From NCBI GenBank assembly GCA_025993875.1, contig JAMQHH010000005.1, positions 8,183-72,182 of the forward strand: a DNA stretch of 64,000 nucleotides, given 5' to 3'. Below are positions 11,868 through 47,015 of the stretch, piece by piece. The translations under genes were made by a program, and so were the position numbers. The stretch's first letter is position 1; each line of letters opens with the position of its first letter. Origin of the DNA: Candidatus Dojkabacteria bacterium. GTDB taxonomy: Bacteria; Patescibacteriota; Dojkabacteria; J137. The notes beneath the pieces were generated by a model. It made no database searches. It was not told where the DNA came from and saw nothing but the letters and a program-made list of their open reading frames with translations.

Positions 11868-11944
11868 TGGGGTGGTTGGCGGGGCTCGAACCCGCGACAA
11901 CCGCTTCCACAGAGCGGCGCTCTACCAACTGAGCTACAACCACC
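11868..11944 (-). tRNA. tRNA-His (anticodon GTG), with G-1 and genomically encoded CCA
   Basis: Hand-folded cloverleaf on the minus strand: G-1, acceptor GTGGTTG/CAACCAC, D-stem GCTC/GAGC, anticodon stem CCGCT/AGCGG with loop CTGTGGA, T-arm GCGGG-TTCGAGC-CCCGC, discriminator C, then CCA. Confidence 0.85.
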
Positions 11945-13985: not shown

Positions 13986-14057
13986 TGGGTTTGGTGGGAT
14001 TCGAACCCACGACCAATCGCTTAAGAGGCGACTGCTCTACCACTGAGCTACAAACCC
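13986..14057 (-). tRNA. tRNA-Lys (anticodon CTT)
   Basis: Minus-strand cloverleaf: acceptor GGGTTTG/CAAACCC, D-arm GCTC..GAGC, anticodon stem GTCGC/GCGAT with loop CTCTTAA, T-arm GTGGG-TTCGAAT-CCCAC, discriminator A. Confidence 0.8.
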
Positions 14058-14074
14058 CATATTTAGGAAAGAGT

Positions 14075-14147
14075 TACACACGACTGGATTCGAACCAGTG
14101 ACCTACTGCTTAGAAGGCAGTTGCTCTATCCACTGAGCTACGTGTGT
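14075..14147 (-). tRNA. tRNA-Arg (anticodon TCT)
   Basis: Minus-strand cloverleaf: acceptor ACACACG/CGTGTGT, D-arm GCTC..GAGC, anticodon stem ACTGC/GCAGT with loop CTTCTAA, T-arm ACTGG-TTCGAAT-CCAGT, discriminator A. Confidence 0.8.
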
Positions 14148-16710: not shown

Positions 16711-16782
16711 GGGTCGATAGCTCAACGGTAGAGCAGCTGCCTTTTAAGCAGTTGGTTCCGAGTTCGAATCTCGGTCGACTCA
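16711..16782 (+). tRNA. tRNA-Lys (anticodon TTT)
   Basis: Cloverleaf: acceptor GGGTCGA/TCGACTC (one G-U pair), D-arm GCTC..GAGC, anticodon stem GCTGC/GCAGT with loop CTTTTAA, T-arm CCGAG-TTCGAAT-CTCGG, discriminator A. Confidence 0.8.
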
Positions 16783-17032: not shown

Positions 17033-17915
17033 TTTGTAAAATACTATGAACATGTTACAAATTTAATAAGCGATTAAAAGTTATAGCTGATAAGCAAAAT
17101 AGGAATGATGCTGAAATGACTGATCTCTTTCTAAATTTGTTGAAATCTATAGCTGAATAACTTTTTAACCATGCCACCACTTTTTCAATTAATCCTCTAG
17201 TGTATTTATGCTCATGTGTAAACTTAAATCGTGGTCCTAATTTTCTGTTATTGCTACAATTCTTCATCTCCATTCTTACCTGGCAATTTTGTTTTTTTAA
17301 TTCTTGTCTTCTTTGGTACCTCTCATATCCTTTATCCAAGAAAAGCTCATAAGGTAATTTTTTAATACCAATAAGCATTTTATCAAGTATCTCTGAATCT
17401 GGAGCGCTACCAACATCTACAGAGTAATATATCGGAACACAGTCTTCAGTTATTGCTATTGTTATCTTTATACAGTAATTATGATATTTTCCGGAATACG
17501 TTACTAAATTACATGTTCTGTACGATACCCGATCACTTGAATCTATTATTACTTTTCCTAATCTTCTTATTGTTAAGTTGGAAGTTATGAATTTGTGAAA
17601 TTTTTTTAATAATCCTCTTCTTTGAATTTCGTAAAGATATCTTCTACAAGTTGTTTGATGCTTAATTCCCCTCCATCCACAACTTGTTTTAAAAAGCCTT
17701 TGTAATTCAATTAGCATAACAATAGCACTTATTGGTTTGGGTCCTCTTTTCCCAGGTTTTCTTTCTGGTAGGAATTTACATAGATGCGCAAGAAACTTCT
17801 TTGTGTTATTATTCATTGGATGAGTATTTAATAGTTTGACACTATATTATGCCCATCCATTCATAACTTTTCAAGTTTTATTGAAATTTGTAACATCTTC
17901 TATGTAATTACTTAG
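17033..17915 (-). mobile_element. IS5-family insertion sequence (approximate ends)
   Basis: The single transposase ORF is flanked by imperfect terminal inverted repeats sharing the core ATGTTACAAATTT. The left is ...ctatgaacATGTTACAAATTTaataa at ~17045-17075. The right, as reverse complement, is ...catagaagATGTTACAAATTTcaataa at ~17880-17912. Confidence 0.6.
17055..17816 (-). CDS. IS5-family (IS427/IS1031-like) DDE transposase
   Basis: N-terminal KRGPKPISAIVMLIELQRLFKTSCGWRGI matches the 'RGRPR...ILYVLRTGCQWRxLP' block of IS5-group transposases; 253 aa. Confidence 0.7.
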   Translation of the reverse strand: MNNNTKKFLAHLCKFLPERKPGKRGPKPISAIVMLIELQRLFKTSCGWRGIKHQTTCRRYLYEIQRRGLLKKFHKFITSNLTIRRLGKVIIDSSDRVSYRTCNLVTYSGKYHNYCIKITIAITEDCVPIYYSVDVGSAPDSEILDKMLIGIKKLPYELFLDKGYERYQRRQELKKQNCQVRMEMKNCSNNRKLGPRFKFTHEHKYTRGLIEKVVAWLKSYSAIDFNKFRKRSVISASFLFCLSAITFNRLLNL

Positions 17916-20934: not shown

Positions 20935-21622
20935 GGTCTAGGGTTATCATTTTTATCTGGATTTCTTCGCTTTCTTCTACAACGCTTTCTAAATTGGGAC
21001 TAAAACTCCCCTTCCCTTTAACAGCAAAAATTTCTTGCTCTATATATATTTCATCTCCGCTTTGAAGTCTGTCAATAAAACTACAAGTAGCAGCCGTTCT
21101 TAAACAAAAAAGATATCTACCACTTGTGTCTTTGAACCCGCTAAATTTACCTTGAATATTATTAGAAATTTCCGAGCTTACATTTAATCTCGGTATAGAA
21201 ATATTGCCTTGTGTTAACTGCTCAAAACCCGCTTCCTTAAATTTTTCATATAATTCAGTTAACGTATTTTTTGCCTCTTTGGAAAAAGTTACGGGGAGAA
21301 TTTGCGTATTAGTATCAATACTAAAATTATAATTAAGGGCTTTTACAAGTGCTGTTGTTTCGGTTGGCGAAATGACAGCTTCGGTTGTTGGTGTGGGAGT
21401 ATTTTCGGGAGTAAGTGTTAGTTCGGGTGTAATACTAGGTACTATAAAATTATAGTTTCGTCTAACCGGTATAAATTTTTGAATTTCGGCAATAACATTC
21501 TCTAACGGAGCTTTTATAATTAGCCAGAATGAGTTAATAACAGCAACTACACCAATTATACAGACAATCAAAATTGCAAAGATCATAATAAATGTGTTTT
21601 GATCGTCTCGATTAATTGCCAT
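20897..21622 (-). CDS. Membrane-anchored protein, unknown function
   Basis: N-terminal TM helix; 241 aa; Thr/Pro-rich linker TPELTLTPENTPTPTTEAV. Confidence 0.4.
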   Translation of the reverse strand: MAINRDDQNTFIMIFAILIVCIIGVVAVINSFWLIIKAPLENVIAEIQKFIPVRRNYNFIVPSITPELTLTPENTPTPTTEAVISPTETTALVKALNYNFSIDTNTQILPVTFSKEAKNTLTELYEKFKEAGFEQLTQGNISIPRLNVSSEISNNIQGKFSGFKDTSGRYLFCLRTAATCSFIDRLQSGDEIYIEQEIFAVKGKGSFSPNLESVVEESEEIQIKMITLDRDQNKVFVVYAK

Positions 21623-23585
21623 TTACATCCATTTTATTAAAAAGTTTTATATTTTCCTCCGAAGGCGTTTGTGAGATTATAACCTTATTTACCTCGTGTT
21701 TTAAAAGTGTTAGGGGTTCTTGGTTATTAATAGATTCAAGCCTTAAAATTATTTTTAGGTCTTTCTTTTTTAAATTTGTAATAACTTCTGAAATTATTGC
21801 CGTAAGCTTTTTTAGCTCAAGCGCGGTAAATGTTTCTTTGTAAAAAAAGATCTTCCCAAAATTTTCAAAATTAATAACTACTCCATCCGTAATTTTGCTA
21901 TTCAGCTGGCTTAAATCCATTAGAAGTGAAGGAATTTCCAGCTCGACCCAAAAATGGGATTTAGAATTAATCTTTAAAAAATTAAAAGCAAAAAGCTCTC
22001 TTTTAATTTCGGTAATTTCGTCGGCAGATCTACAAGAAGGAATTATCCAATTTATTTTACTTCTTTTAAAATTATCGGGAAGCCCTTTAAAAATACCCTG
22101 AGATTGAATTGCCAATAAATTTTTTAGTTCGGATTGAGTTGTTTTCTGATAATTTGTTACCAGCCTTAAAAAAATCTCTTTTTCTTCGAAAAGTTTTGCT
22201 AAAATTTTGGAATTTAAAGATAAGTTGTTAAGCATTCTTGTAGCGTTTTTAGATGAGTCATTTTTTTCGGCACCAGGATTTATTGTTAGTGAATATTGCG
22301 GACTAATATCAAAAAAAACTCCGTTAAATCTTTTAGCATCATCCAGCTTTTTAGTTTGCATCTCGGTTACATCGAGTAGGATTGGAGTTTTAGTTTTAAT
22401 ATCTCTGTTTAGTTTATTTTTTGATGCTAAATCGCGGACTTGTTTTATTTCTAGATCATTAAGATTAAATTCGATTTTTGCGACATTCTCTATTTTTTCT
22501 AAACTCGTATTTATCTCGTGCTGCTTTATTTTCTCTTGTATGGTTGTAGACTTGATAGAATTTAAATCTAATCTTTTTATAGCGATCTTGTTTTTAGGTT
22601 CAGATTTTAAAAAAGAAAGTGAAGAAATTTCTTCGATCGAAACAATACCTTCGCTTATATTCCAGCTTATCTCGAGAGGAACGCCATGTGATTTAGATTC
22701 AATTTTTTTTCCTATTTTGGCAATTTCAATTATTTTTTCGGCACTTAGTTTGGGTCTGTTGCGCCAGTTTTTAGAGATTTCGACCTCTGTTTTTTCGTTT
22801 GATGGGTCTGCGCTTTTTTTGCTTGTTACTATTTTCATTATTTTTTGCTCTGTGAGTCTTTTTTCTACTATCTCTCCGTTTCTCTTGGAAACTTTGTAAA
22901 CATCGCTGTTAGAATCCAAATAGCTTTGAAAGTCGCTTAAACCGTATACTGCTCTAATTTCCAGCAGATCTTTTTCCTGCGTTGCCGGAGGTATTGTAAA
23001 GATCTTCCCCGAAATTTCGGGAATATTCATTATCTGAATAATTAAACCAAGAGAAATCTCTTTTTTGTAATTATTTAGACCTCTAAGTTCTATTGCTTCG
23101 GTAGAAAATAAAGATGCCCACGAATTAATAATTGCCCACTCCAGAGCTTTTTCACCGTTTACATATTTTACCGAGTATCTCTCTCGTTGAGGTATTACAT
23201 TTTCGGGGATAAAATGTGATTGTTTTACCAAAACAGTCGGATTTTCGGATTTAGTTAGATTATGGTATGCAAACATTAAAGGCTTTTTTATTGTTTCTCC
23301 AAGGCGGGCGTTAAAAATCTCTTTTAGTATTTGCTGAGAACATCGTTGTGCTGATCCCGAGATTAGCGGATTATATTCCTTAAGAATATCCGCGATTTTT
23401 TTTGTAAGACGTGAAGACTCTAAAAAATGTTCAAATGCGTGATTAGAAATACAAAAAAAGGGCGAAAAAGGAATTTTTTCTTTATAAAGATCTAAATATA
23501 TTTTGGCATCGTTACCTAGATATCCAGCTTCTTTTTTCCCGATATTTTTGGGATTGTAAACCATCAAGGGTAATCTTCCAAACAC
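21612..23585 (-). CDS. PPDK_N (PEP synthase/pyruvate-phosphate dikinase N-terminal ATP-grasp-like) domain protein with unknown C-terminal half
   Basis: ALEWAIINSWASLFSTEAIELRG matches the PpsA/PPDK_N block 'vWaSlf..RAi.YR'. No swivel-His (GGxxSHAAI) or PEP-utilizer C domain was seen; 657 aa. Confidence 0.5.
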   Translation of the reverse strand: MFGRLPLMVYNPKNIGKKEAGYLGNDAKIYLDLYKEKIPFSPFFCISNHAFEHFLESSRLTKKIADILKEYNPLISGSAQRCSQQILKEIFNARLGETIKKPLMFAYHNLTKSENPTVLVKQSHFIPENVIPQRERYSVKYVNGEKALEWAIINSWASLFSTEAIELRGLNNYKKEISLGLIIQIMNIPEISGKIFTIPPATQEKDLLEIRAVYGLSDFQSYLDSNSDVYKVSKRNGEIVEKRLTEQKIMKIVTSKKSADPSNEKTEVEISKNWRNRPKLSAEKIIEIAKIGKKIESKSHGVPLEISWNISEGIVSIEEISSLSFLKSEPKNKIAIKRLDLNSIKSTTIQEKIKQHEINTSLEKIENVAKIEFNLNDLEIKQVRDLASKNKLNRDIKTKTPILLDVTEMQTKKLDDAKRFNGVFFDISPQYSLTINPGAEKNDSSKNATRMLNNLSLNSKILAKLFEEKEIFLRLVTNYQKTTQSELKNLLAIQSQGIFKGLPDNFKRSKINWIIPSCRSADEITEIKRELFAFNFLKINSKSHFWVELEIPSLLMDLSQLNSKITDGVVINFENFGKIFFYKETFTALELKKLTAIISEVITNLKKKDLKIILRLESINNQEPLTLLKHEVNKVIISQTPSEENIKLFNKMDVNGN

Positions 23586-23658: not shown

Positions 23659-26154
23659 TTAATTATTATTCTTTTTCTCTAACTTTTTTACTAAAAAGTT
23701 CTCTTTTTGATAATCTACCATAATACTGTCTCCAGATTTTATTTCGCCAAGAAGTAACTTATTAGATAAAAGATTATCTATCTCCCTTTGGACTGTTCTT
23801 TTTACAGGTCTTGCACCAAATTGTGGCTCTATACTTGTAAGCGCTATCTGCTCAATTGCTCCTTTAGTAAACTCTACAGTAATGTTTTGATCTTTTAAAA
23901 GTTTAGCTGTGTTTTTTAAAACCAATTCTGTAATACTTCTTATCTCTTTTTGAGTTAATGCCTTAAACATTATTACTTCGTCCAATCGGTTTATAAATTC
24001 CGGTCTGAAAAATTTTTTTAACAACTCAAAAACATCTTTTTTAAGTTCTTCCCATTTGGGAATAATTTCGGTTGTGGATTTTAGCTTAACTAAACTTTCA
24101 CCGCTTGTTTTGGGCTTTATCTTATCGACCATCTTTGCCATTTCTTGCGCCCCGATCGTTGCTAAAATAAGTTCGGATCCTATATTGGATGTCGCGATTA
24201 TTACTGTATTTTTAAAGTCCACCGTTCGACCTTTCCCGTCGGTAAGCTTGCCGTCGTCTAAAACCTGCAAAAGAATATTAAAAACATCGGGATGCGCCTT
24301 TTCTATTTCGTCTAGAAGTATCACTGAATAAGGCTTTCGTCTAACTCTTTCTGTTAATTGACCCCCTTCATCGTAGCCCACATAGCCCGGAGGAGCCCCA
24401 ATAAGTCTGGAAACTGAAAATTTTTCCATATACTCGCTCATATCGAGTCTTATCATCGAATTTTCGTCTCCAAACATAATTTCTGCAAGACTTTTGGCAA
24501 GTTCCGTTTTTCCAACTCCAGTTGGACCCAAAAATAAAAATGAAGCTATTGGCCTTTTGGGATCTTTTAATCCTGTTCGCCCCCTTTTTATTGCTTCCGC
24601 TACTGCTTTTACTGCTTCTTCCTGCCCTATAACTCTTTCGTGCAGTTTTTGTTCAAGATTGATTAGACTCTCTCTCTCCTCCTTATTTAATTCTGTTAGA
24701 GGTACTCCGGTCATTCGAGAAATTACTTCAAAGATATCCTGCGTTGTGAGTTCGGGAGTACCACTTCCCTTAACGGTTTGCCACTCTGCCTCCAATGGTT
24801 TTAATTCATCTTTTTGTTGTTCTATCTGTACTTTTAATTCTGCTGCCTCTTTAAGCTGTCCTCCCCTTGTTAAAGCCTCCCTTTCACCTTCGAGCTTTTT
24901 TATTTGGGCTTTTAACTGTGCCAGTTTTGGAGGTTCTGTAGTAAATTTTAATCTTACTCTGCTTGCTGCTTCGTCTAACACGTCAATTGCTTTATCGGGT
25001 AGGAACCTGTTTTTAATGTATCTGGCCGAGAGCTTGGCTGCTTGTATAACTGCATTTTCCGCTATTTTTAATTTATGGTGCGACTCGTATTTGGGTTTTA
25101 TTCCTTCCAGAATCTTTATCGTATCATCTATACTTGGCTCTTCGATAATCACCGGCTGGAACCTTCTTTCTAAAGCTGCGTCTTTTTCAATATATTTTTG
25201 ATATTCATTTAAAGTAGTTGCACCAATTACCTGTAACTCTCCTCTGGCAAGGGCCGGCTTAATAATATTAGAGAAATCAAGTTCTCCCTGCTGGGCACCC
25301 GATCCTACAATAGTATGCAATTCATCGATAAACAAGATAATGTTTCTTTCAGCTTTTTCGATCTCATCTACCAGTTTTTTTGCCCTTTCCTCAAATTCCC
25401 CTCTAAATTTAGAGCCTGCAACAAGAGAGGCCAAATCCAGTGCCTTAACTTTTTTATTTAACAATATTTCGGGAACTGAGTTTGTAACTATTCTTTGTGC
25501 AAGCCCTTCGGCAATTGCTGTTTTTCCTACACCAGGCTCGCCAATTAAAACCGGATTATTTTTTTTACGTCTCGATAAAATTTCGATTACTCTTGTAATT
25601 TCGTTATCTCTTCCTATTACAGGGTCAATTTTATCCTGTTTTGCAAGTTCAGTAAGATCTTTTGTAAACTGATCTAAAACAGGAGTTTCGGTTTTGTTTT
25701 TTTGTTTATCACCTTCTTTATCGCCTTCCCCCACAACTTTTATTACAGCCTGCCTTGCTTTGATATGTGTTACCCCGAATTTTTTTAAAACCTGAGCAGC
25801 TAGTCCTTCCTCCTCTTTTACTATACCCAGTAAAAGATGCTCTGTACCGATGTAGTTATGGTTTAATTCCAAAGATTCCTGGTAAGCTAATTCGATAGCC
25901 TGATTTGCTCTTGGTGTAAAAGAGGGTTGTGCATTGGATGTTCCTACAGCCATAATTTTTTCCAGTTCGGAATTTAATGTCGAACTGTTTACACCAAGCT
26001 CTTTAAATATCTTATTAATAACGATTGTGTCTTGTGCTATTCCAAATAAAACATGCTCTGTATCAATAGACCTCTGCCCTTTTTCCTGTGCCTTTAAAAA
26101 AGCCTCCTGTAAAGCTTGATGTGTTCTTTTAGAAAATAATTCGGCAATATTCAT
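23659..26154 (-). CDS. Clp/Hsp100 AAA+ chaperone, ClpB/ClpC family
   Basis: Two Clp_N repeats (GTEHVLFGI / GTEHLLLGI), two AAA+ modules ([15 protein letters not shown]; [15 protein letters not shown]) and a ~100-aa coiled-coil middle domain. No obvious ClpP-docking [IV]GF loop was seen; 831 aa. Confidence 0.9.
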
Positions 26155-26401: not shown

Positions 26402-29400
26402 ATGAAGCAATTTTCTAAAATTCCTCTTTCTACAAGAGTGCTTTTTGGTGCAATTTGCACCCTTTCGCTTTTAACAGTGGTTAGAGATTTATCTTCCCGA
26501 AATTTTGAAGCTTTTGGTAATTTGCAATCGGTAACAGCACAGGAAAGCTCTTCCGAAACAATTACAAAAGCCAAAACTCCATCGTTTCCCGAAACTTATA
26601 ATGGTGAGTATAAAATTATTGATTCCTTCGGACGGGCTTTGGTAATAAATCCGGGTAATAAAGCGGATCCAATTAAAACTGTTGCAGAAGTAGACGGAAA
26701 AATCTGGGGAATGGAATTAAACAGCAAAAGCGGGGTAAATATGGGAACTTATTCCGGTGACCTTCGTCCTATTGATTTTATAAGTGGCAAAGGTACCGTA
26801 GAAGATCTAGGCATGAGTTTTGTGGTTATAAGTACAACTAATGATGGTAATGTTGATAGTCTTGTTAAAGCAATAAATGAAGCTGTGGATAACGGGAAAA
26901 TGCCGGTTATCAGGTTGTGTATTGGCCCATGTAATTTTATAATAAAAGGGTCTGCACAAACCGTTGGTGAATCTATGGCCAAATTTTATCTTCAGGTTGC
27001 GCAAGCTTTGGAAGGCTCCGACGCACAGTTTGTAGCAAGTTTGGGCCCAAACGAACCCGGCACGGGTAATGAGATGGCGGATTTTTTATTAACCTCGGAT
27101 GTTAATTACGGATATTCAATTTTACCCGAAGCCGCAAATATTGCAGCAAGGCTTTTACAGGGATACAGAGGCGACACGATGTATTTAGCCCCGGGGATTT
27201 TTAACATAACGAATACAAAAAATGATGATTTTTTAGCATATTCAAAAGTTCTAGATCCTTCTTTATTTGATTATCTTCTTGGAAATACCTATGTATTTTC
27301 GGATCTTTCGGCGCATGCTTTTTACACCGATAAAATTGGGAGTAGGACTTCTTCCGTTAAGGAGTATGTAGAATCAAACAATTTAGGATTTATAGTAACT
27401 GAGTTTGGTTCTTTTGTAACAAACGATTCTCCATCAACAGGAGATGGCGGGGAACTTTCTGTTTCTGCATTGGATTTAGTTAAATCTTCTTACAGCGAAT
27501 TATGTAGAGACCAGTCTATCGATGGAATAAACTTTTTTAGACCTTTTACAGAGGAAGAGTATGGAACCACTATCCCTATCCCCAAACAGGGTATCCCATC
27601 AGATCAGGTACTAGAGATAACATCAGTTTGTTCTGAGATTCCGCAAAAAGCAACAAAATCTAACAGGTGGCTAAATGCTAATTTCGATTCGTGTGTTGCT
27701 TTAGAAGATAATGAAAATAGTGTACTTGGTGTTTCGGATACAGCAAAGCAATACTGTAGTGTAATAAGAGGAAAAACTAGCTGGCTCTCGTTTGGAGATA
27801 GTCTTGCAGGAAACGGTGAAAGTATGGCAGGGGTAACAGGTGCAGAAGTTCTTTCTTTTGAAGGTCAGGGTGCATTAGATTTTTTAGAGGGACATCCTTT
27901 TTATACCCAGAGCTATGTCGATTCACTTAACGCAAAACTGAATGAAGAAAAAATTGCAGCAGTAAGAATTATCTTAGGTACAAATGACTGCCGTTCGGGC
28001 ATAGATCAACTTGATAATTTTAAGAAAGCTATAACATTTATAACACAAACTATTAAACAAAAAGCAGCACCAATACTGGTAACTATTATGGGAAATCCTT
28101 CGTGCACAGGAGGGGCTGAACTTTGGAATGCAAAAATTAGAGAGGTTGCAAGTTCCGAAGGAGCAGTTTTAATAGATACAACTTCGTATTATTCTAATTC
28201 TGATTTAAAAGATGATAGGCATTTAAAAAATTATGATAAATTAAATTCCGAAACAACTGCCGTTTTATCGAGTATTTCTTCAAGCTGCAAAATTTCAATT
28301 AATACAGGAAATTTGCCAACGGGTGATGATAGTTCTAATTTAGAGACAGGTGTTTCGGAAAGTATATATGTTAATTATGACGGGACATATGGGCTTGGAA
28401 GAGATACAAAACTTAAATCCTGCCAGGTTATAGAGAGTAAATCTGATTCTAAGACCTCGGCACTGGTTGTTCCATCGGGTAATGGATTTGGCATTACTCT
28501 TGTTACTTATATGGATGTAAGTCTGCCTGTTTTATCGGTGGCAAGCGCCAATCCTGCAAATAGCTCTGCAGTTATAAGTTCCACACCGTTAACTAATTAT
28601 ATTTCCGCACAAATTGGAACGCCAAAGCAGGGGGAAAATTTTTACGATTCCTTAAACCAGTTTGCCGAAGGGTTAGATTTGGGTGAGATGGGCAGTTATC
28701 CAGTTCCATGGTTAGGAAGTTTAAACTCCTCCGCAAGTTCTTTAATATACTCACTAAAGGATTATAATTTTGCAGGAAATGTGCCTATAAATTACAACAG
28801 TAATGCTCTTTATCAAAATTCTATTTCGGAAATTCAAAACGATATCGAAAACAAATTAGCGGTAGCTTCTACTTACGAAACATCGGGGGTTTACTATAAA
28901 GACGGTAAAATTCCCGACGAGCGTGCAGTTTGCTTTGCAAAAAGATCAAATATTTCCGAAATTGTTGCATGCTTTGATAACAAAGAGTTTACATCTATAA
29001 GACAAAGCAGGTACTCCGATATCGGTTCAGCCAAGTACATTTTAAAAGAGGAGGAGGTATCTTCCTGCCCGGGGATTCAAATTGCGTCAACAAACCGAAA
29101 AAATCTTTTGCCTGGACCAAAAGTTGAGGTTAAAAGGGTATCCGAACAGTTTTCGGGTTCCGAAATCTGCTGGAATTACGGTGTTAGAAAGATAAATTCT
29201 GATATCTCCGAAAACTGGAGCTTTAAATACGATAAAGTGTTTTTAGAGGAAGATAAAGCAAAGTCAAATTTAAAATGTTCTGTGGATCCTAATGCAGTGG
29301 TTTACAGGTACAACAGGTTAAATGTTTTAGTGCCGGTAAAATGTACCAATTTGATTCCACTTTGCGATTTTTCAAGCGGAAGATGTAGTTTCCCTGGGGA

Positions 29401-32400
29401 AGCCGATGTAAAAAACAGCTGTTTTGTTTACGAACATAAATCTGAAGACGAAATTTACAAAAAATCTTCTCAGGACCCTTATGCCGAATGGCCCAAATCT
29501 GCATCTATTAACTTAAACACAGCACTCTATAACCTAGTTTCGTATATTGATATTTACTTAAAGCCAAAAGGGTTGGATTTAAAAATTCCCGAAAGTGAAA
29601 ACTTCGGGTGGCAGGGGTTAATAAGACAAAGTGTGCACGATGAAGGTAAAAAAAACAATTCCAAATATATTCCTGCCGAGGTTTTTAATATGCCTTATTA
29701 TTATAACGGGGAATCTAACGAGCAGTGTGTTAACGATAAATCGAAGTTTTTCGATAACTCTATGCCTGTTGCATCTTCCAGACAGTCGGATGTATATTTC
29801 CCGCTGGCGGGTTGGATACAGATTTTAACTGAATTTGCCACAGGATATGTTGCCAATACTACTCTGCCCGATGTAAAAATTGCTCCACGACAGGAATTAG
29901 TGGCTAGTGTACAAAATGGAAATAGCAGCTTAAATCTTTCCAGCGTGCTTGGAATTGATACCAAAGCAAACGAACAATATATAGAATCTAACTTTGTTCA
30001 GTCAGGTTATGCTTCTAGAGCTCTCTCGTTCCCGCTTTATTCGTGTAACGAAATTGATGAATGCAAAAAAGATTCCAATTCGCCTCTTTGTCCCGATCCG
30101 CTAAAAGGTATAGAGATACCCAAGGATAAAGAATTTACCTGCATTAAGTTAAGGGATGGACAGAGTGAAAATTTTATAAAAAATTATCTTTGTCAAAAGG
30201 GATTTGTTTTTGAAGATGTATGCGGAAAAGATCCTTTACTTTATTGCAGTGTTCCTCAAACCGGAAATGACAGCTCAAAATCCGCCGATACGCCGGTTAA
30301 GATTGCAAGTGGGGGTTATTACGCTGTTGCCAATACTTCCGACTCCCTATTTTTTGCTACTGAAAGTTATAAAATTAAGTCAGAAAATATAACCGAATTT
30401 TCAAAAAGGCATCAGTTAGACTTTGCGATAAACGGAAACTTTTATACAGGAACCGGTTCTCCTTTAGGAATGGTCGGCCAATCACCAAACATTATATTTG
30501 ATAACATTAATGATGCTAGCAGAGCGGGCGCAGAGTTTGCATTAGTGTGGCACGATGGTAAATTAAAAACCGGAAAATCGGAAAACGATAAGTTTATAAT
30601 TTTTTACACAGATAAAATTGCAATACTGGATACTCGAAGTAAATCAATTATGGGAGAAAATGCTGATGTATTTTCACAAAAACAATTTGATGCTTTTAGA
30701 CCTCACATTAAATCTGCAGTAAGCGGGATTGCTCTTTTAGGCAGCCAGAGTAAATTACGTTATTCAGAGTCCGATTATACTACAATTAGACAAGAGGTAA
30801 GAGCGGCTACAATTATAGGGATTAAAGATAAAGGACAAAATGTAGTTTTATCGGTTTTAGATGCGGCAAATTTTTTTGGTATAGAAAATTATGTAAAAGA
30901 AAACAATTTAGAATATGCAATTATTTTGGATGCAGGAGGTTCTTCTCAAATTTATTCTAAAGCCGGTTTTCCTGATTCTGTTGATATTTATAACAATGGA
31001 ACAGTATATTCTCCGGAGGCAGAGCCAAGAGGTGTAAGTGTGTATTTCGGATTTAAAATAAGTAACAGTAGCGTTTTGGTGGGAACGAGTGATTATTGCA
31101 GTTGCATAAATAATATTAATTCGAAAGATTTTGTTCTTAACTATCCAGTTAAAAACGTTATATATGGAGGAGAAACACAAAAAATTTCTCAGGAAAATCT
31201 TGCAGCAGATTATGGGAGAGAAAGAACTATTGACGGATGGAGCGATTATCACACCGGACTAGATTGGCTTGCTACCGCAGGTGAACCTGTTTTGGCAGCC
31301 GGAGCTGGAAGTGTTTATTTTGTAGGCACAGATACCGATTCCAGTGGAAACGTTTCGGGGTACGGAAATTATGTAAAAATAAAACATTCCAACGGAATGG
31401 TAACCTTATATGCGCATTTAAGTGAATTTTTGGTTGCAGCGGGAGATAATGTTAAAGCAGGAGATGCTATAGGAAAAGTAGGCAATACCGGCAGAAGCAC
31501 CGGATCTCATATTCATTTTGAACTACGTAAAAACGATACTTGCGGGTGGGATGGAAGTTTAATTGCAGATAATTTTGGAAGCTGCAGCATAGATCCCAAA
31601 CAGTATTTTTCGGAGCTTTTTGATGAATCTGCTGCAATTCAGTGTAAAAACACTAAGTCCAACAACTATAGTACCATAATGGATTTAGCTCAAAAAGTTG
31701 AAAGTATTACAAAGGTCCCTGCCGAATTTTTGCTTTCGATTCTTACGCTCGAGAGTAGAACCGATATGGAGTTAACGCTTGGAGATTTTATAAAAAATAA
31801 TAACCCTGTTTATTCGGGAGATCCATACGATAGAAAATCTCAAGAAGGGGAAAATCCGTACAAAGCGGCCGGCCCGTATCAGTTTGTTGGGTGCTACTGG
31901 ATACCATACGGTATTCCGAGAAATATTGATCCCGATAAACTAAGGGAATTGTATCCCGGTTGTGCAGATTCTAATTACAGTACGGCAGGCCGAAATTATG
32001 ATGAAGTTTTAAACTGTGTAAAGGAGATAGGAATGGAGGCGGAATACGGTGAAGTTTTGGATAGAGAGTTTGTGGGACATTCGATGTGTGCAATGGCATC
32101 TAAATCTAAAGGATTTTTTGCTAATTTAACATCTTCTCTTTTTGATACTTTTTCGGTCGAAGATAGATCATCTTTTGCTGAGACCAATCCTATTTGGAAT
32201 GCTGCCAGATATCATTATTGCGGGAATGTTTCGCTCGGGAATGCCGAAGGACAATGTTCTTACGGATATTGGTATTCCGATGCAGCATGGGGAAGAGCAA
32301 ATGTTTTTAATAAGTTTATGGATAAGTTAAAATCCGGAGATATAAGTTTTGACCAGGTGTTTTATTATTCGGATACTTTGGAAATTGAGTGTGTAAATAG

Positions 32401-32431
32401 ATCTTATAACCAAGTAGATGACTGCCGTTAA
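26402..32431 (+). CDS. Giant secreted multi-domain cell-wall hydrolase (GH5-like + SGNH/GDSL + phosphodiester-glycosidase-like + M23 peptidase + lytic-transglycosylase-like)
   Basis: Signal peptide, then GPNEPG and TEFGSF (GH5-type acid/nucleophile blocks). FGDSLAG and LGTNDC (SGNH blocks I and III). AINGNFYTG and AIILDAGGSSQ (NAGPA/phosphodiester-glycosidase hallmark). HTGLDW...GYGNYVKIKHSNGMVTLYAHLS...SHIHFE (M23 LytM motifs). FLLSILTLESRTD (SLT-like ES motif); 2009 aa. Confidence 0.8.
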   Translation: MKQFSKIPLSTRVLFGAICTLSLLTVVRDLSSRNFEAFGNLQSVTAQESSSETITKAKTPSFPETYNGEYKIIDSFGRALVINPGNKADPIKTVAEVDGKIWGMELNSKSGVNMGTYSGDLRPIDFISGKGTVEDLGMSFVVISTTNDGNVDSLVKAINEAVDNGKMPVIRLCIGPCNFIIKGSAQTVGESMAKFYLQVAQALEGSDAQFVASLGPNEPGTGNEMADFLLTSDVNYGYSILPEAANIAARLLQGYRGDTMYLAPGIFNITNTKNDDFLAYSKVLDPSLFDYLLGNTYVFSDLSAHAFYTDKIGSRTSSVKEYVESNNLGFIVTEFGSFVTNDSPSTGDGGELSVSALDLVKSSYSELCRDQSIDGINFFRPFTEEEYGTTIPIPKQGIPSDQVLEITSVCSEIPQKATKSNRWLNANFDSCVALEDNENSVLGVSDTAKQYCSVIRGKTSWLSFGDSLAGNGESMAGVTGAEVLSFEGQGALDFLEGHPFYTQSYVDSLNAKLNEEKIAAVRIILGTNDCRSGIDQLDNFKKAITFITQTIKQKAAPILVTIMGNPSCTGGAELWNAKIREVASSEGAVLIDTTSYYSNSDLKDDRHLKNYDKLNSETTAVLSSISSSCKISINTGNLPTGDDSSNLETGVSESIYVNYDGTYGLGRDTKLKSCQVIESKSDSKTSALVVPSGNGFGITLVTYMDVSLPVLSVASANPANSSAVISSTPLTNYISAQIGTPKQGENFYDSLNQFAEGLDLGEMGSYPVPWLGSLNSSASSLIYSLKDYNFAGNVPINYNSNALYQNSISEIQNDIENKLAVASTYETSGVYYKDGKIPDERAVCFAKRSNISEIVACFDNKEFTSIRQSRYSDIGSAKYILKEEEVSSCPGIQIASTNRKNLLPGPKVEVKRVSEQFSGSEICWNYGVRKINSDISENWSFKYDKVFLEEDKAKSNLKCSVDPNAVVYRYNRLNVLVPVKCTNLIPLCDFSSGRCSFPGEADVKNSCFVYEHKSEDEIYKKSSQDPYAEWPKSASINLNTALYNLVSYIDIYLKPKGLDLKIPESENFGWQGLIRQSVHDEGKKNNSKYIPAEVFNMPYYYNGESNEQCVNDKSKFFDNSMPVASSRQSDVYFPLAGWIQILTEFATGYVANTTLPDVKIAPRQELVASVQNGNSSLNLSSVLGIDTKANEQYIESNFVQSGYASRALSFPLYSCNEIDECKKDSNSPLCPDPLKGIEIPKDKEFTCIKLRDGQSENFIKNYLCQKGFVFEDVCGKDPLLYCSVPQTGNDSSKSADTPVKIASGGYYAVANTSDSLFFATESYKIKSENITEFSKRHQLDFAINGNFYTGTGSPLGMVGQSPNIIFDNINDASRAGAEFALVWHDGKLKTGKSENDKFIIFYTDKIAILDTRSKSIMGENADVFSQKQFDAFRPHIKSAVSGIALLGSQSKLRYSESDYTTIRQEVRAATIIGIKDKGQNVVLSVLDAANFFGIENYVKENNLEYAIILDAGGSSQIYSKAGFPDSVDIYNNGTVYSPEAEPRGVSVYFGFKISNSSVLVGTSDYCSCINNINSKDFVLNYPVKNVIYGGETQKISQENLAADYGRERTIDGWSDYHTGLDWLATAGEPVLAAGAGSVYFVGTDTDSSGNVSGYGNYVKIKHSNGMVTLYAHLSEFLVAAGDNVKAGDAIGKVGNTGRSTGSHIHFELRKNDTCGWDGSLIADNFGSCSIDPKQYFSELFDESAAIQCKNTKSNNYSTIMDLAQKVESITKVPAEFLLSILTLESRTDMELTLGDFIKNNNPVYSGDPYDRKSQEGENPYKAAGPYQFVGCYWIPYGIPRNIDPDKLRELYPGCADSNYSTAGRNYDEVLNCVKEIGMEAEYGEVLDREFVGHSMCAMASKSKGFFANLTSSLFDTFSVEDRSSFAETNPIWNAARYHYCGNVSLGNAEGQCSYGYWYSDAAWGRANVFNKFMDKLKSGDISFDQVFYYSDTLEIECVNRSYNQVDDCR

Positions 32432-32828
32432 TAAAAAAACGAGAAAACTTAATAATTTTTCCACTTTTATCACTGTTTTATCGGTGGTTTTTGCACTGCT
32501 TGTAGTGTTAGTTATCGGATTATCTATACAAAGGGCATTAGAAATAAGAGCAATCGAATCTCAATTTGTAAAGCATACTGAAAATTATTATACTTCAAAA
32601 GATTATGATCTTATTGTCGACAAAACTAAAGTAAAAATTGTTTTTTACAATCAAAAACCCCAAGATTCTTTAGTAGAGATAATAAAAAAATACCTTGGTG
32701 TAAACGATTTTGAACTTATCGATAACAGTTACTCCCAAAAAAATTGGCTTAATTCTTCTACAGGCAGCGACCTTCCTATAGATACGTTTCCTCTGGAGAT
32801 TTACAAAGACGATGACAAGTTAGAATAA
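32418..32828 (+). CDS. Small single-pass membrane protein
   Basis: N-terminal TM helix VLSVVFALLVVLVIGL; 136 aa. Confidence 0.35.
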   Translation: MTAVNKKTRKLNNFSTFITVLSVVFALLVVLVIGLSIQRALEIRAIESQFVKHTENYYTSKDYDLIVDKTKVKIVFYNQKPQDSLVEIIKKYLGVNDFELIDNSYSQKNWLNSSTGSDLPIDTFPLEIYKDDDKLE

Positions 32829-43388: not shown

Positions 43389-46300
43389 CTAACTGCATCC
43401 TGTTGTTGTACCACAATCCATGCAAACTGCACAGCTTCCACTTTTTTTAACGTTCATACTGCCACAGCTTGAGCAAATATCCCCTGTATATCCCATCGAT
43501 TTTGCTTTAGAGATTTTATCGGAAAGAGTTTCCTCTTCCATCGAAAAATCATTTTGTGTAATAACTTCTTCCAGCTTAAGTTGGCTTGGCTCAACGTTGA
43601 TATTTTGAGACGCTGTTTCTAAATTTTGATTACTTTTTGGGGTATAATAATTTCCTTTAATCTCTGTGTAGCCTTTACCATTTATGTAAGGGATTAGTAA
43701 ACGAGATTTTGTACCTTCTCTATAGGATCTCTCTACTAGTTCCTCGTTATGATATTGTTTTGCTGTTTCTATATCTAAAAATTTTAGAGCAAGCCACCTG
43801 GATATGTAATCAATTATAGATTTAACCATAGGAATTTCCCTGTTTGATGTTAACCCGCTCGGCTCGAATTTTAAATTTACGAATTTTTTAATTAAAGCTT
43901 CTAACGGTACACCATATTGCATGTTAAGTGAAAGAGAGATGGCAAAAGCATTCATTATCCCCGATAAAAAGCTTCCCGCATTACTCATTGTTATAAATAT
44001 TTCGCCGGGGTTTCCATCTTCGTATAACCCTACTGTTAAAAATCCCTCATGACCTGCCACTGCAAATTTATGGGTAATACTATGTCTTTCATCCCCTAAT
44101 TTTCTTCTTTTAGGCCTGTTTTCAAGTTCTTTATTGATAACCTCCTGAAGTTTAATTGTATCGATAGTAATTTGCTCTCCTTCTTCCTCCGAAAAATTAA
44201 ATAGTTTAGAATAGCTGCTATCCGAACCTCCTGTGGTTAAAGGTTGAGACAACTTTGACCCGTCTCTGTAAAGAGCATTAGCCTTTAACATAAGTTTCCA
44301 TCCATCCAAATAAGTTTCGGAGATCTCTTTTAAGCTTGCTTCTTCGGGGAGATTTACAGTCTTACTTATTGCACCCGATAAAAAAGCCTGAGCTGCCGAC
44401 ATTATTTTTAAATGACCCGTTGTACCAATATATCGCTGACCTTTTTTCCCGCACTTGTTTGCACAGTCAAAAACAGCGTAGTGCTCTATTTTTAAAAAAG
44501 GTGCACCTTCTATTGTCATGGTACCGCACACATACTCTTCCGCTTTTTCTATTTGAGACTCGGTAAAACCAATAGCTTTTAATAAATCGAATTTTGGGTT
44601 TGCCAAGTTTTCAGCGGAAATTTTTAATGTGTTTTTTATAAAATCTTCTCCTAAAATCCACTTACTAAAAACACTACGCAAATCAAAAGCTGTTTGCAGC
44701 CTTCCTTCAATTAAAAATAAAATTTCATCAGTAAACCCTTTATCTTTAAGGGTTAAATTATTTATAAATGGTGCACCATTTAATGTAGCATGCCCAACAA
44801 TATATTTTTCTATTCCGTCAATTTCGGCTGCAGTGTATCCAAATTGTTTTAATGCTGGTTTGACAGATTGATTAACCATCTTAAAGTATCCTCCCCCAAC
44901 AAGTTTTTTAAATTTAACAAGAGCAAAATCGGGTTCTACCCCTGTTGTATCAAAATCCATTAATAAACCAATCGTTCCGGTTGGAGCAATAACAGTTGTT
45001 TGTGCATTTCTGTATCCATACTTCTCACCAAGTCCTAAGGCAAAATCCCAGGATTCCGCTGCAATTTTTGCAAGTTCAAAATCGGGAATATTCGAAAGGT
45101 TAATTCCCATAGGTTTGATTGTAAGTCCTTCGTATTCGTTTCCCGATACATTGTATGCAGCTCGGCGGTGGTTTCTTATTACCTTAAGCATTGGATCTTT
45201 ATTATTCGAATACTTTGCAAAAGGTCCTTTAATTTTGGCCATTTCGGCGGAAGTTGCATAAGATTCCCCCCCCATAATGGCGGTAATTGCACCGGTTACA
45301 GCATAGGCTTTGTCGCTTTCGTAAGCAATCCCCTGCTGCATTAAAAGTGCCCCCAAATTTCCATACCCCAGGCCCAGTGTTCTAAAAAGATACGTTCTTT
45401 CGGCCACAGTTTTAGTAGGCAAATGTGCCATTAAAACAGAAATTTCTAAAACTATTGTCCACAACCTTGTTGCGTGCACAAATTTTTCTGTATCAAATTT
45501 TCCTGTGGCTGAGTTAAAAAATTTTAGTAAATTTAATGAAGCAAGGTTACAAGCTGTATCGTCTAAAAACATGTACTCGGAGCATGGATTACTGGCATTA
45601 ATTCGCCCATCGTTAGGGCATGTGTGCCACTCGTTTATTGTAGTATCGTATTGTATTCCGGGATCGGCCGACTCCCACGCCGATCTAACCACTTTATCCC
45701 ATAAATCACTTGCCTGTAACTTTTTAATAACTTTCCCGTTTGTCCTGGCGGTAAGTACCCACTCTTTATTCTCTTCCAGAGATTTAAAAAATTCATTTGT
45801 TACTCTAATAGAGTTATTTGAATTTTGACCACTTACTGTGCTGTATGCCTCGGATCTAAAATCTGTATCGTATTTTTCGAAGGTAAATTCATCTTCTTTT
45901 ATGCCGTTTTCTACAAGCATTAAAATTCTTTTTATATAATTTAGCGGGATGTGGGCATTTTTAGCATTTTTAATTGCTTTTTTTAGTTCGGGGTTTGATT
46001 CCGGATCAATACCATTTTCTATTGCCAGTTTAAGTATGGACTTTAAGTGTTCATAATTGGTATTTGATCCTGTTACAATTGCGGCAACTTTTCTCTCCTC
46101 TTTTGCTTTCCACTCAATAAAACTCTCGATTTCGGGGTGATCTATATCTAATGTAACCATTTTGGCTGCTCTTCTTGTTGTTCCTCCCGATTTAATTGCA
46201 CCGGCACCTGTATCGAAAATTTTTAGAAAGCTCATCAATCCAGAAGACTTGCCACCACCCGATAATGTTTCGCCTTCTCCCCTAAGAGCGGAAAAATTTG

Positions 46301-47015
46301 TTCCTGTTCCCGAACCATATTTAAAAATTCTTGCTTCTGTAGTTAATGTATCAAAAATTCCTCCTTCGTTTACTAAATCGTCTTTTATGGAAAGAATAAA
46401 GCATGCGTGTGCTTGCGTTCGGGTATATGCATCCGGCGAAAGCTTTAGCTCGCCGGTTTCGGGGTCGGCGTACCAATGTCCCTGAGGAGTACCGGTAATT
46501 CCATAAGCCCATTGCAACCCGGTATTAAACCACTGAGGACTATTAGGAGCTGCGATCTGAGTTATTAGCATGTAGGCAATTTCGTCCTCGAATGCATCGG
46601 CATCTTGTACCGAATCAAAATATCCGTATTTTTCTCCCCACCACCTCCATGCACCTGCAAGTCTGTTTACTGTTTGTTTTACAGATGTTTCCCCTCCATA
46701 TACCTGTTGCCCTTTTTCATCTTTTATTGGGTTACCTTCTGCGTCTTTTAAGGGAATTCCGGTTCTCCTAAAATATTTTTGAGCCAAAATATCTATTGCC
46801 ACCTGGCTCCATAATGCAGGAACTTCAATATCTTTCATTTCGAAAACAACAGAACCATCGGGGTTCGAAATTTTGGAAGTTGTTTTTACAAAAGTAATAC
46901 CATCAAATCTATCCTTCCCTTCTTTTGTAAAAACTCTTTTTATTTTTAATCCTGCTGTACCAATATTATTTTTTTCTCTCTCTTCTATCTTTTCTTTGCT
47001 TATTAAAGTCTGCAT
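43389..47015 (-). CDS. nrdJ: Adenosylcobalamin-dependent (class II) ribonucleotide reductase NrdJ, long form with C-terminal Cys-rich zinc ribbon
   Basis: Active-site block SNPCSEYMFLDDTACNLASLNL (the NPCGE...CNLGSINL pattern), a thiyl-radical Cys region, and the C-terminal CSSCGSMNVKKSGSCAVCMDCGTTTGC; 1208 aa. Confidence 0.85.
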   Translation of the reverse strand: MQTLISKEKIEEREKNNIGTAGLKIKRVFTKEGKDRFDGITFVKTTSKISNPDGSVVFEMKDIEVPALWSQVAIDILAQKYFRRTGIPLKDAEGNPIKDEKGQQVYGGETSVKQTVNRLAGAWRWWGEKYGYFDSVQDADAFEDEIAYMLITQIAAPNSPQWFNTGLQWAYGITGTPQGHWYADPETGELKLSPDAYTRTQAHACFILSIKDDLVNEGGIFDTLTTEARIFKYGSGTGTNFSALRGEGETLSGGGKSSGLMSFLKIFDTGAGAIKSGGTTRRAAKMVTLDIDHPEIESFIEWKAKEERKVAAIVTGSNTNYEHLKSILKLAIENGIDPESNPELKKAIKNAKNAHIPLNYIKRILMLVENGIKEDEFTFEKYDTDFRSEAYSTVSGQNSNNSIRVTNEFFKSLEENKEWVLTARTNGKVIKKLQASDLWDKVVRSAWESADPGIQYDTTINEWHTCPNDGRINASNPCSEYMFLDDTACNLASLNLLKFFNSATGKFDTEKFVHATRLWTIVLEISVLMAHLPTKTVAERTYLFRTLGLGYGNLGALLMQQGIAYESDKAYAVTGAITAIMGGESYATSAEMAKIKGPFAKYSNNKDPMLKVIRNHRRAAYNVSGNEYEGLTIKPMGINLSNIPDFELAKIAAESWDFALGLGEKYGYRNAQTTVIAPTGTIGLLMDFDTTGVEPDFALVKFKKLVGGGYFKMVNQSVKPALKQFGYTAAEIDGIEKYIVGHATLNGAPFINNLTLKDKGFTDEILFLIEGRLQTAFDLRSVFSKWILGEDFIKNTLKISAENLANPKFDLLKAIGFTESQIEKAEEYVCGTMTIEGAPFLKIEHYAVFDCANKCGKKGQRYIGTTGHLKIMSAAQAFLSGAISKTVNLPEEASLKEISETYLDGWKLMLKANALYRDGSKLSQPLTTGGSDSSYSKLFNFSEEEGEQITIDTIKLQEVINKELENRPKRRKLGDERHSITHKFAVAGHEGFLTVGLYEDGNPGEIFITMSNAGSFLSGIMNAFAISLSLNMQYGVPLEALIKKFVNLKFEPSGLTSNREIPMVKSIIDYISRWLALKFLDIETAKQYHNEELVERSYREGTKSRLLIPYINGKGYTEIKGNYYTPKSNQNLETASQNINVEPSQLKLEEVITQNDFSMEEETLSDKISKAKSMGYTGDICSSCGSMNVKKSGSCAVCMDCGTTTGCS

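Follow-up and report, generated by a model that had tools for sequence, protein, structure and literature searches.

Which cell wall does a giant enzyme of an ultra-small bacterium open, its own or that of a host? The question is raised by a gene in a stretch of 64,000 nucleotides (hereafter the window) of contig JAMQHH010000005.1 from Candidatus Dojkabacteria bacterium (assembly GCA_025993875.1, positions 8,183 to 72,182 of the forward strand). The gene encodes a protein of 2009 amino acids (aa), hereafter the giant, in which an initial annotation had recognized five catalytic modules directed at a bacterial envelope. To our knowledge, it is little understood how ultra-small bacteria belonging to the Candidate Phyla Radiation (CPR, Patescibacteria) attach to their hosts, open them and draw food from them, and we know of no cultured member of the Dojkabacteria. 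The giant is very probably a multi-catalytic extracytoplasmic wall hydrolase. Judged from its sequence, it has four well-supported catalytic modules and a probable fifth, all with their catalytic residues intact. That the envelope of a partner or host is its main target is a tentative reading, to which we give slightly less than an even chance. The locus is a concrete, lineage-wide candidate for host wall opening, as one conserved gene is predicted to provide every enzymatic step needed to dismantle a wall of the Gram-positive type.

Catalytic modules of the giant

All motifs quoted in the initial annotation were located in a single uninterrupted open reading frame (ORF, Table 1): GPNEP at residue 215, TEFG at 333, FGDSL at 464, GTNDC at 526, (AIL)DAGGSS at 1510, HTGLD at 1617, HIHFE at 1703 and LESRTD at 1783. 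The DNA around the gene is AT-rich, and since 2009 uninterrupted codons occur at about 37% GC, the frame is not a chance ORF. An artefact, either a chimera of assembly or several genes fused through sequencing error, would be suggested only by the exceptional length and the mixed modules. At least 7 independent SRA runs yielded contigs, 14 in all, that encode the identical protein with unchanged flanks (a ClpC gene on one side, a 136-aa ORF and SecA on the other), and end-to-end collinear homologues with the same domain order are present at 99.7, 93, 83 (P0002) and 52% (P0003) identity. The core order recurs in about 50 further clusters. The same neighbours on all contigs and the collinear homologues exclude the assembly chimera about which the initial annotation had cautioned, and the probability of any such artefact is negligible.

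The M23/LytM module was confirmed by Peptidase_M23 (PF01551; 105.9 bits, cut-off 28.7, E 1.3e-30), and the region matched M23 chains of the PDB down to E 9e-20. The full HxxxD, H and HxH set is present; the module is therefore of the active type and not an activator of the EnvC or NlpD type. Almost all aligned M23 domains in the family keep the zinc ligands, and 20 of 26 giants have an M23 match in Pfam.

Support by Pfam is not limited to M23, as the SGNH/GDSL and NAGPA-like modules of the initial annotation were also recovered. Lipase_GDSL_2 (PF13472) matched aa 456-606 with 29.9 bits in the whole protein and 33.8 bits in the isolated segment (cut-off 32.9). S467 is conserved in all 20 aligned residues (22 rows, two gaps), G526, N528, D604 and H607 in 22 of 22. 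GDSL was detected by Pfam in 10 of the 26 giants (best E 1.2e-9). A single-sequence search of the PDB with the SGNH segment returned nothing, including no specific similarity to Ape1, an SGNH O-acetylpeptidoglycan esterase. The SGNH module is thus supported at the threshold of Pfam, with its predicted catalytic blocks kept. NAGPA (PF09992) exceeded its cut-off of 25 both in the whole protein (26.8 bits) and in the isolated segment (32.9 bits), and was found by Pfam in 7 of the 26 giants (best E 9.8e-14); a single-sequence search of the PDB with this segment gave no relative. The motif residues D1510, G1512 and S1514 are conserved in 12 of 12 family members. The module is supported as a phosphodiester glycosidase, and its predicted hydrolysis of sugar-1-phosphodiesters rests on the conserved D-x-G-G-S. 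A PHROGs search gave nothing for any of the modules.

The N-terminal domain had been annotated as a GH5-like TIM barrel. A barrel of glycoside hydrolase (GH) clan GH-A (4/7 superfamily) is retained here on the basis of the predicted fold and the invariant NEP and TE motifs. Membership in GH5 (Cellulase, PF00150) was rejected, as there was no sequence-level match in Pfam or the PDB: for aa 1-450 Pfam gave nothing at E<=10 save an irrelevant match at 0.23, and PDB profile searches with 7- and 20-sequence barrel profiles returned nothing relevant. Distant homologues of the barrel have sub-threshold Pfam scores for Cellulase and Glyco_hydro_cc, both of the TIM-glycosidase clan. A model of the domain made with AlphaFold2 (AF2) from 7 sequences shows alternating strands and helices, with a predicted local distance difference test (pLDDT) of 59, mostly 60-90 in the core blocks, and a predicted TM-score (pTM) of 0.67. 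Foldseek against the PDB gave 79 matches at E<=1e-3, nearly all of them clan GH-A barrels with a probability of about 1.0, among them GH26 lichenase, GH53 galactanases, GH10 xylanases, GH5, GH2, GH30 and GH39 (E 2.6e-6 to 2e-4). The match at rank 1, 6zpl_C (273 residues, described as a chain of a glycine-transporter complex), was out of line with this list and was ignored; its length equals that of the CtLic26 lichenase entry 2v3g, ranked fourth.

Residues R171, N217-E218-P219, N295/Y297, T333-E334-x-G336 and F379 are near-invariant in about 140 aligned barrel domains. In the model N217-E218 follows the strand at 210-213 and E334 the strand at 329-337; counting these strands as 4 and 7 presumes that the conserved, unmodelled SGVNMG (aa 109-114) is strand 1. 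The predicted (beta/alpha)8 barrel is common to the giant and clan GH-A enzymes (GH26 CtLic26, GH53 galactanase, GH10 xylanases, GH5 endoglucanases), and so are conserved Arg, Tyr and aromatic residues where other strands end; if the count is right, Asn-Glu would close beta-4 and Glu would close beta-7, as in these enzymes. By sequence, in Pfam and in the PDB profile search, the giant is a member of none of these families. The domain is placed in clan GH-A as an unclassified, putatively retaining glycosidase barrel.

The C-terminal domain, annotated as an SLT-like lytic transglycosylase region, is probably a lysozyme-like or SLT-like module that cleaves glycan strands. A profile of 22 sequences had four matches only in the PDB, all from the lysozyme superfamily: the phiKZ gp144 endolysin/lytic transglycosylase was matched in two entries (E 0.013 and 0.014), and the other two were lysozymes of the goose type (E 0.034 and 0.42). 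E1784 aligns with the catalytic ES of these proteins (IES in gp144, RES in goose lysozyme), and GPxQF aligns with GWFQF of gp144. E1784 is conserved in 17 of 17 aligned sequences; G1824, Q1827 and F1828 are also conserved in the family. Pfam SLT (PF01464) was reached by one of the 22 family members (E 1.5e-3), and aa 1741-2009 of the giant gave nothing in Pfam at E<=10. Nothing was found in the PDB with a profile of 3 sequences, hhalign gave no match between the C-terminal profile and the SLT-bearing Streptomyces protein P0011, and a metagenome scan found no relatives of the domain. What is kept of the annotation is a marginal resemblance to the lysozyme superfamily with its Glu motif; a Pfam SLT match was not obtained for the giant itself.

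The region between the SGNH and NAGPA modules is specific to the family. It contains the invariant cysteines C923, C959, C1215, C1247 and C1264, had no relative in Pfam, PHROGs or the PDB profile search, and was found alongside the barrel in each of the 60 giant clusters that were examined. It may serve as a spacer, for reach or in binding.

The description of the protein as secreted is in doubt. A single hydrophobic segment is present near the N-terminus, with the positive residues K2, K6 and R12 near it, and is followed by a conserved juxtamembrane motif, RD..G..PFG....I.AQ (consensus of 26 giants). The sole conserved candidate cleavage site (A/S-Q) is located about 19 residues past the hydrophobic core, an atypical spacing. 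For this reason a signal anchor is tentatively preferred over a cleaved signal peptide, a membrane anchor being at least as likely. One N-terminal hydrophobic segment was found in 46 of 50 giants, and a second segment elsewhere in only one. The single segment, together with the many invariant cysteines, argues for an extracytoplasmic location of the protein.

Table 1. Position of the giant gene, its predicted modules and its direct neighbours in the window
Feature	Nucleotides	Strand	Residues	Details
ClpC-type ATPase gene	23659-26154	-		Divergent, upstream of the giant gene
Giant ORF (whole)	26402-32431	+	2009 aa + stop	ATG start, uninterrupted; multi-module envelope hydrolase (predicted)
Hydrophobic segment	26432-26482	+	11-27	Sole one in the protein (hydropathy scan); signal anchor or uncleaved signal peptide
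N-terminal conserved region	26513-27751	+	38-450	Clan GH-A-like (beta/alpha)8 barrel, about aa 105-385 (predicted)
Barrel, candidate acid/base	27053-27055	+	E218	In GPNEP; conserved NEP
Barrel, candidate nucleophile	27401-27403	+	E334	In TEFG; conserved TE
SGNH/GDSL esterase module	27767-28231	+	456-610	PF13472; blocks I GDS (S467), III GxND (G526, N528), V DxxH (D604, H607)
Central family-specific region	28322-30391	+	641-1330	About 600-690 aa; NQFA, YPxPWLGS, IPDER and GPE/K motifs
NAGPA-type phosphodiester glycosidase module	30416-31051	+	1339-1550	PF09992; D1510-x-G-G-S
M23/LytM zinc endopeptidase module	31247-31537	+	1616-1712	PF01551; H1617xxxD1621, H1672, H1703xH1705 intact
C-terminal domain	31664-32428	+	1755-2009	Candidate lysozyme-like/SLT-like; conserved E1784 (LES), GDP, G1824-P-x-Q-F
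Downstream ORF	32418-32828	+	136 aa	One N-terminal transmembrane helix; overlaps the stop of the giant gene by 14 nucleotides

Family core, cassettes and neighbourhood

A HMMER search of 1.84 billion representatives with the barrel family profile gave 142 clusters (50% identity), of which about 50-60 are giants of 1400-2450 aa. In an iterative hidden Markov model domain map the order is fixed: N-terminal hydrophobic segment, barrel, central region and a variable C-terminal part. The fixed core of the family is a transmembrane (TM) anchor with barrel and central region, and the hydrolase cassettes vary. M23 was mapped in 51 proteins of the family, the C-terminal lysozyme-like domain in 26, SGNH/GDSL in 26 and NAGPA in 15, while VanY, M15_4 and Amidase_2 occur in some members. 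The placement of the SGNH module also varies; in some members it is found after the barrel or inside the central region. Several giants (P0018, P0029, P0039, P0049 and P0053) contain two tandem barrels. Many distant homologues of the barrel (P0067, P0074, P0077, P0090, P0094 and others) matched the profile in swapped order, with positions of about 215-335 ahead of those of about 64-177; these barrels may be circularly permuted.

One homologue bears the NCBI label 'M15 family metallopeptidase', and no publication describing this giant family was found in the literature. Multi-catalytic cell-wall hydrolases are a kind already known. The new components, of interest whatever the target, are the unclassified GH-A-like barrel family with its 142 clusters, including tandem and circularly permuted forms, and the conserved region of about 600 aa without a detectable relative.

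The fold matches of the barrel are xylanases, galactanases, lichenases and mannanases, and hemicellulases typically pair a GH with an SGNH esterase. Barrel and esterase might accordingly act on exopolysaccharide, on plant or algal glycans or on wall debris of dead cells, with the peptidoglycan modules digesting necromass and not a living partner. A dockerin-bearing ORF in the window and a weak dockerin match in one distant barrel homologue hint at polysaccharide-degrading surface systems in the lineage. Such scavenging is unlikely. The barrel of the giants always shares a chain with hydrolases of wall peptides (M23, M15 or amidase), no carbohydrate-binding module was detected in the giant by Pfam, and a membrane anchor is poorly suited to distant insoluble biomass.

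The 16 related loci of the GTDB species set all come from metagenome-assembled genomes labelled as Dojkabacteria or otherwise as Patescibacteria, with a single syntenic orthologue of the giant per sampled genome. ClpC is divergent and adjacent in 15 of the 16 loci, and SecA is nearby in 8. The ClpC proteins share 67-72% identity with that of the window, whereas the barrel shares only 25-42% between the same genomes. An ORF of 131-272 aa with a single TM helix is located directly 3' of the giant gene, often overlapping its stop, in all 11 GTDB loci with an intact giant ORF. The position and topology of these small ORFs are kept; their sequence similarity is not significant. The 136-aa ORF of the window is a probable operon partner of the giant gene, and could be a regulator, a tether or an immunity protein.

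Five of the loci (L015, L017, L018, L021 and L023) have only a short or truncated ORF as their longest on the plus strand (81-993 aa), which may be due to contig ends, masked bases or frameshifts. L018, with an ORF of 993 aa, is from a genome labelled complete (AP024679).

Own wall or partner wall

The multidomain peptidoglycan hydrolases PrgK of pCF10 and TraG of pIP501 and the Patescibacterial VirB1 homologues resemble the giant in their N-terminal anchor, in the combination of an SLT-type domain with a peptidase (LytM/M23 or CHAP) in one chain, and in the wall-opening role outside the cytoplasm that is predicted for it. M23 domains are frequent in the VirB1 homologues of Patescibacteria, which are mostly unlinked to virB4 (PMC12102498). 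With its TM anchor, M23 module and SLT-like domain the giant has a layout of the PrgK type, and it might open the producer's own wall locally for the assembly of a type IV secretion system (T4SS) or pilus, as PrgK or TraG do in conjugation systems of monoderms. This role is highly improbable. Genes of a T4SS or pilus were absent from the scanned ORFs of the window and from the direct surroundings of the giant gene in the 16 loci, where its neighbours are ClpC and SecA. The size of the protein and its barrel, SGNH and NAGPA modules go far beyond the needs of local wall opening, and the SLT-like domain, which in the giant falls short of Pfam SLT, is missing from many family members. PrgK and TraG are several-fold smaller, are located in T4SS loci, and lack a GH-A barrel, SGNH and NAGPA modules and the central region of 690 aa.

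Wall hydrolases of phages resemble the giant as well. In phi29 gp13, which consists of a lysozyme-like domain and M23, and in M23-bearing tail and internal proteins of phages, a glycan-cleaving domain and M23 are joined in one chain that breaches the wall of another cell from outside, as is proposed for the giant. The M23 region of the giant matches phage tail, internal and tape-measure proteins. An origin from phages was rejected, because matches among 50,697 phage records were confined to the M23 segment (about aa 1580-1815). Unlike the phage enzymes, the giant has no phage context and is kept as a chromosomal orthologue across a bacterial class. In its predicted working the giant resembles PrgK/TraG and the phage tail lysins; it is a member of neither family, and is set apart by its size, its locus and three further types of module.

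The SGNH blocks of the giant are shared with Ape1, which is a separate periplasmic enzyme of Gram-negatives, whereas the module of the giant is fused into the same chain as a candidate lytic transglycosylase. Esterases of the Ape1 type work upstream of lytic transglycosylases, which require a free C6-OH on N-acetylmuramic acid. This C6-OH carries O-acetyl groups and also the N-acetylglucosamine-1-phosphate linkage units of teichoic-acid-type polymers. Because both modifications block it, SGNH, NAGPA and lysozyme/SLT-like modules in one chain form a coherent set that would first unblock and then cut.

According to the proposed mechanism, the giant would be held in the membrane by its single N-terminal helix, with the remainder outside the cytoplasm, and the modules would act jointly on a wall of the Gram-positive type. 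The SGNH esterase would strip O-acetyl groups, and the NAGPA module would cut sugar-1-phosphate links of teichoic-acid-like polymers. The GH-A barrel may cut or remove a beta-linked secondary surface polymer or capsule. Peptide cross-links would be cut by M23, and the glycan strand by the C-terminal domain. In the foreign-target reading, which leads among the alternatives, the enzyme would act mainly on the wall of a partner or host at the contact site, where the wall would be opened locally for attachment or feeding, and the variable cassettes would track the wall chemotype of the host.

Three observations hint at a foreign target: the shuffling of cassettes on a fixed core, the divergence of the barrel as compared with the adjacent ClpC, and the fast-diverging small TM partner that always lies downstream. 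The episymbiotic or predatory lifestyle proposed in the initial annotation fits the taxonomy, as the relatives are all Dojkabacteria or Patescibacteria; foreign and own envelope are not told apart by these data, and the synteny fits a self-wall role equally. The statement that the module set exceeds what normal turnover requires is an inference and not a result. Homologues of peptidases and lysozymes have been reported to be essential for the epibiotic growth of a cultured Saccharibacterium (PMC12102498), which we count for the foreign target. Predatory Omnitrophota possess very long surface proteins, the 'Archaeovorins', with SLT-type and other envelope-degrading domains that are proposed to act on the walls of prey (bioRxiv 10.1101/2023.11.21.568195). 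Like the giant, these are very long surface proteins of ultra-small, host-dependent bacteria; they belong to another phylum, are ten-fold larger and have another domain set, and were likened by description only.

Several points weigh against a foreign target and against the assignments on which it is built. Activity, location and target are all predicted from sequence and structural models. The barrel model is of moderate quality and lacks strand 1, and the substrate of the barrel, a putative beta-linked polymer only, is a weak point. With E values of 0.013-0.4 the assignment as SLT-like is marginal; AF2 modelling of the C-terminal domain from 3 sequences failed (pLDDT 49), and the Foldseek matches of that model all had E>1. 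No wall-binding repeats (LysM, SH3b, SLH) were found. Extracellular proteins diverge fast in general, and the identity contrast between barrel and ClpC is therefore weak evidence. The position beside housekeeping ClpC and SecA fits a core function at the own wall at least as well, the anchor holds the enzyme beside that wall, and the cell has peptidoglycan of its own to remodel, since a Mur ligase and an MraY-type glycosyltransferase (GT4) are encoded within the window.

The latter points would suit a self-directed housekeeping autolysin, in which the wall-remodelling enzymes for growth and division (endopeptidase, glycan-strand cleavage, de-O-acetylation, wall-polymer removal) are fused into one anchored chain in a minimal genome and regulated by the small TM protein. 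The one syntenic orthologue per genome and the M23 zinc ligands, which are nearly always intact, are also in line with it. The chemistry of the own wall should be stable within the class, yet the cassettes swap freely between species, and the giant diverges much faster than its neighbours. We also know of no GH-A barrel that is a recognised type of peptidoglycan-turnover enzyme (established CAZy knowledge). On balance an autolysin is somewhat less likely than a foreign target and follows it closely. If the giant were the organism's own autolysin, it would still be a notable consolidation of enzymes in a reduced genome.

The foreign-target reading can be extended further. The giant would then be the wall-breaching organ of the whole class Dojkabacteria, a surface-anchored 'Swiss-army' enzyme in which barrel and central region recognise and strip a surface glycopolymer of the host, the C-terminal cassettes (M23, M15/VanY, amidase, NAGPA, SLT-like) fit the chemotype of the host wall, and the small TM protein shields the producer's wall as an immunity protein or latch. 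In this full form the proposal is unlikely. If it were true, the cassette set would predict the host range of an uncultured lineage, and with the barrel a new family of glycoside hydrolases would be established whose substrates are polymers linked to the wall. The species-specific cassettes could be compared with host identity.

Other genes of the window

Next to the ClpC gene, on the side away from the giant gene, an ORF of 657 aa (21612-23585, minus strand) has PPDK_N, the ATP-binding domain of pyruvate phosphate dikinase, as its only domain; locus L008 has a weak homologue at the corresponding place beyond ClpC. Two large serine recombinases (Resolvase, Recombinase and Zn-ribbon domains) are encoded less than 5 kb apart at 1746-3323 and 6852-8555, both on the plus strand. 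A DDE transposase is located at 17055-17816 (minus strand), and tRNA genes are located at 11868-11943, 13986-14147 and 16711-16782. Together, recombinases, transposase and tRNA genes may represent an integrated element or its remnants.

An ORF of 952 aa (50842-53700, minus strand) was without a Pfam match at E<=1e-4. The dockerin-bearing ORF (58515-61283, minus strand) has 922 aa and combines NHL beta-propeller repeats with a C-terminal type I dockerin, which hints at surface assemblies of the cohesin-dockerin type in this CPR genome. The ORF at 43389-47015 (minus strand, 1208 aa) encodes a ribonucleotide reductase of class II (B12-dependent) with a C-terminal TSCPD domain. Its barrel was matched in two stretches, and its length suggests an insertion, possibly an intein.

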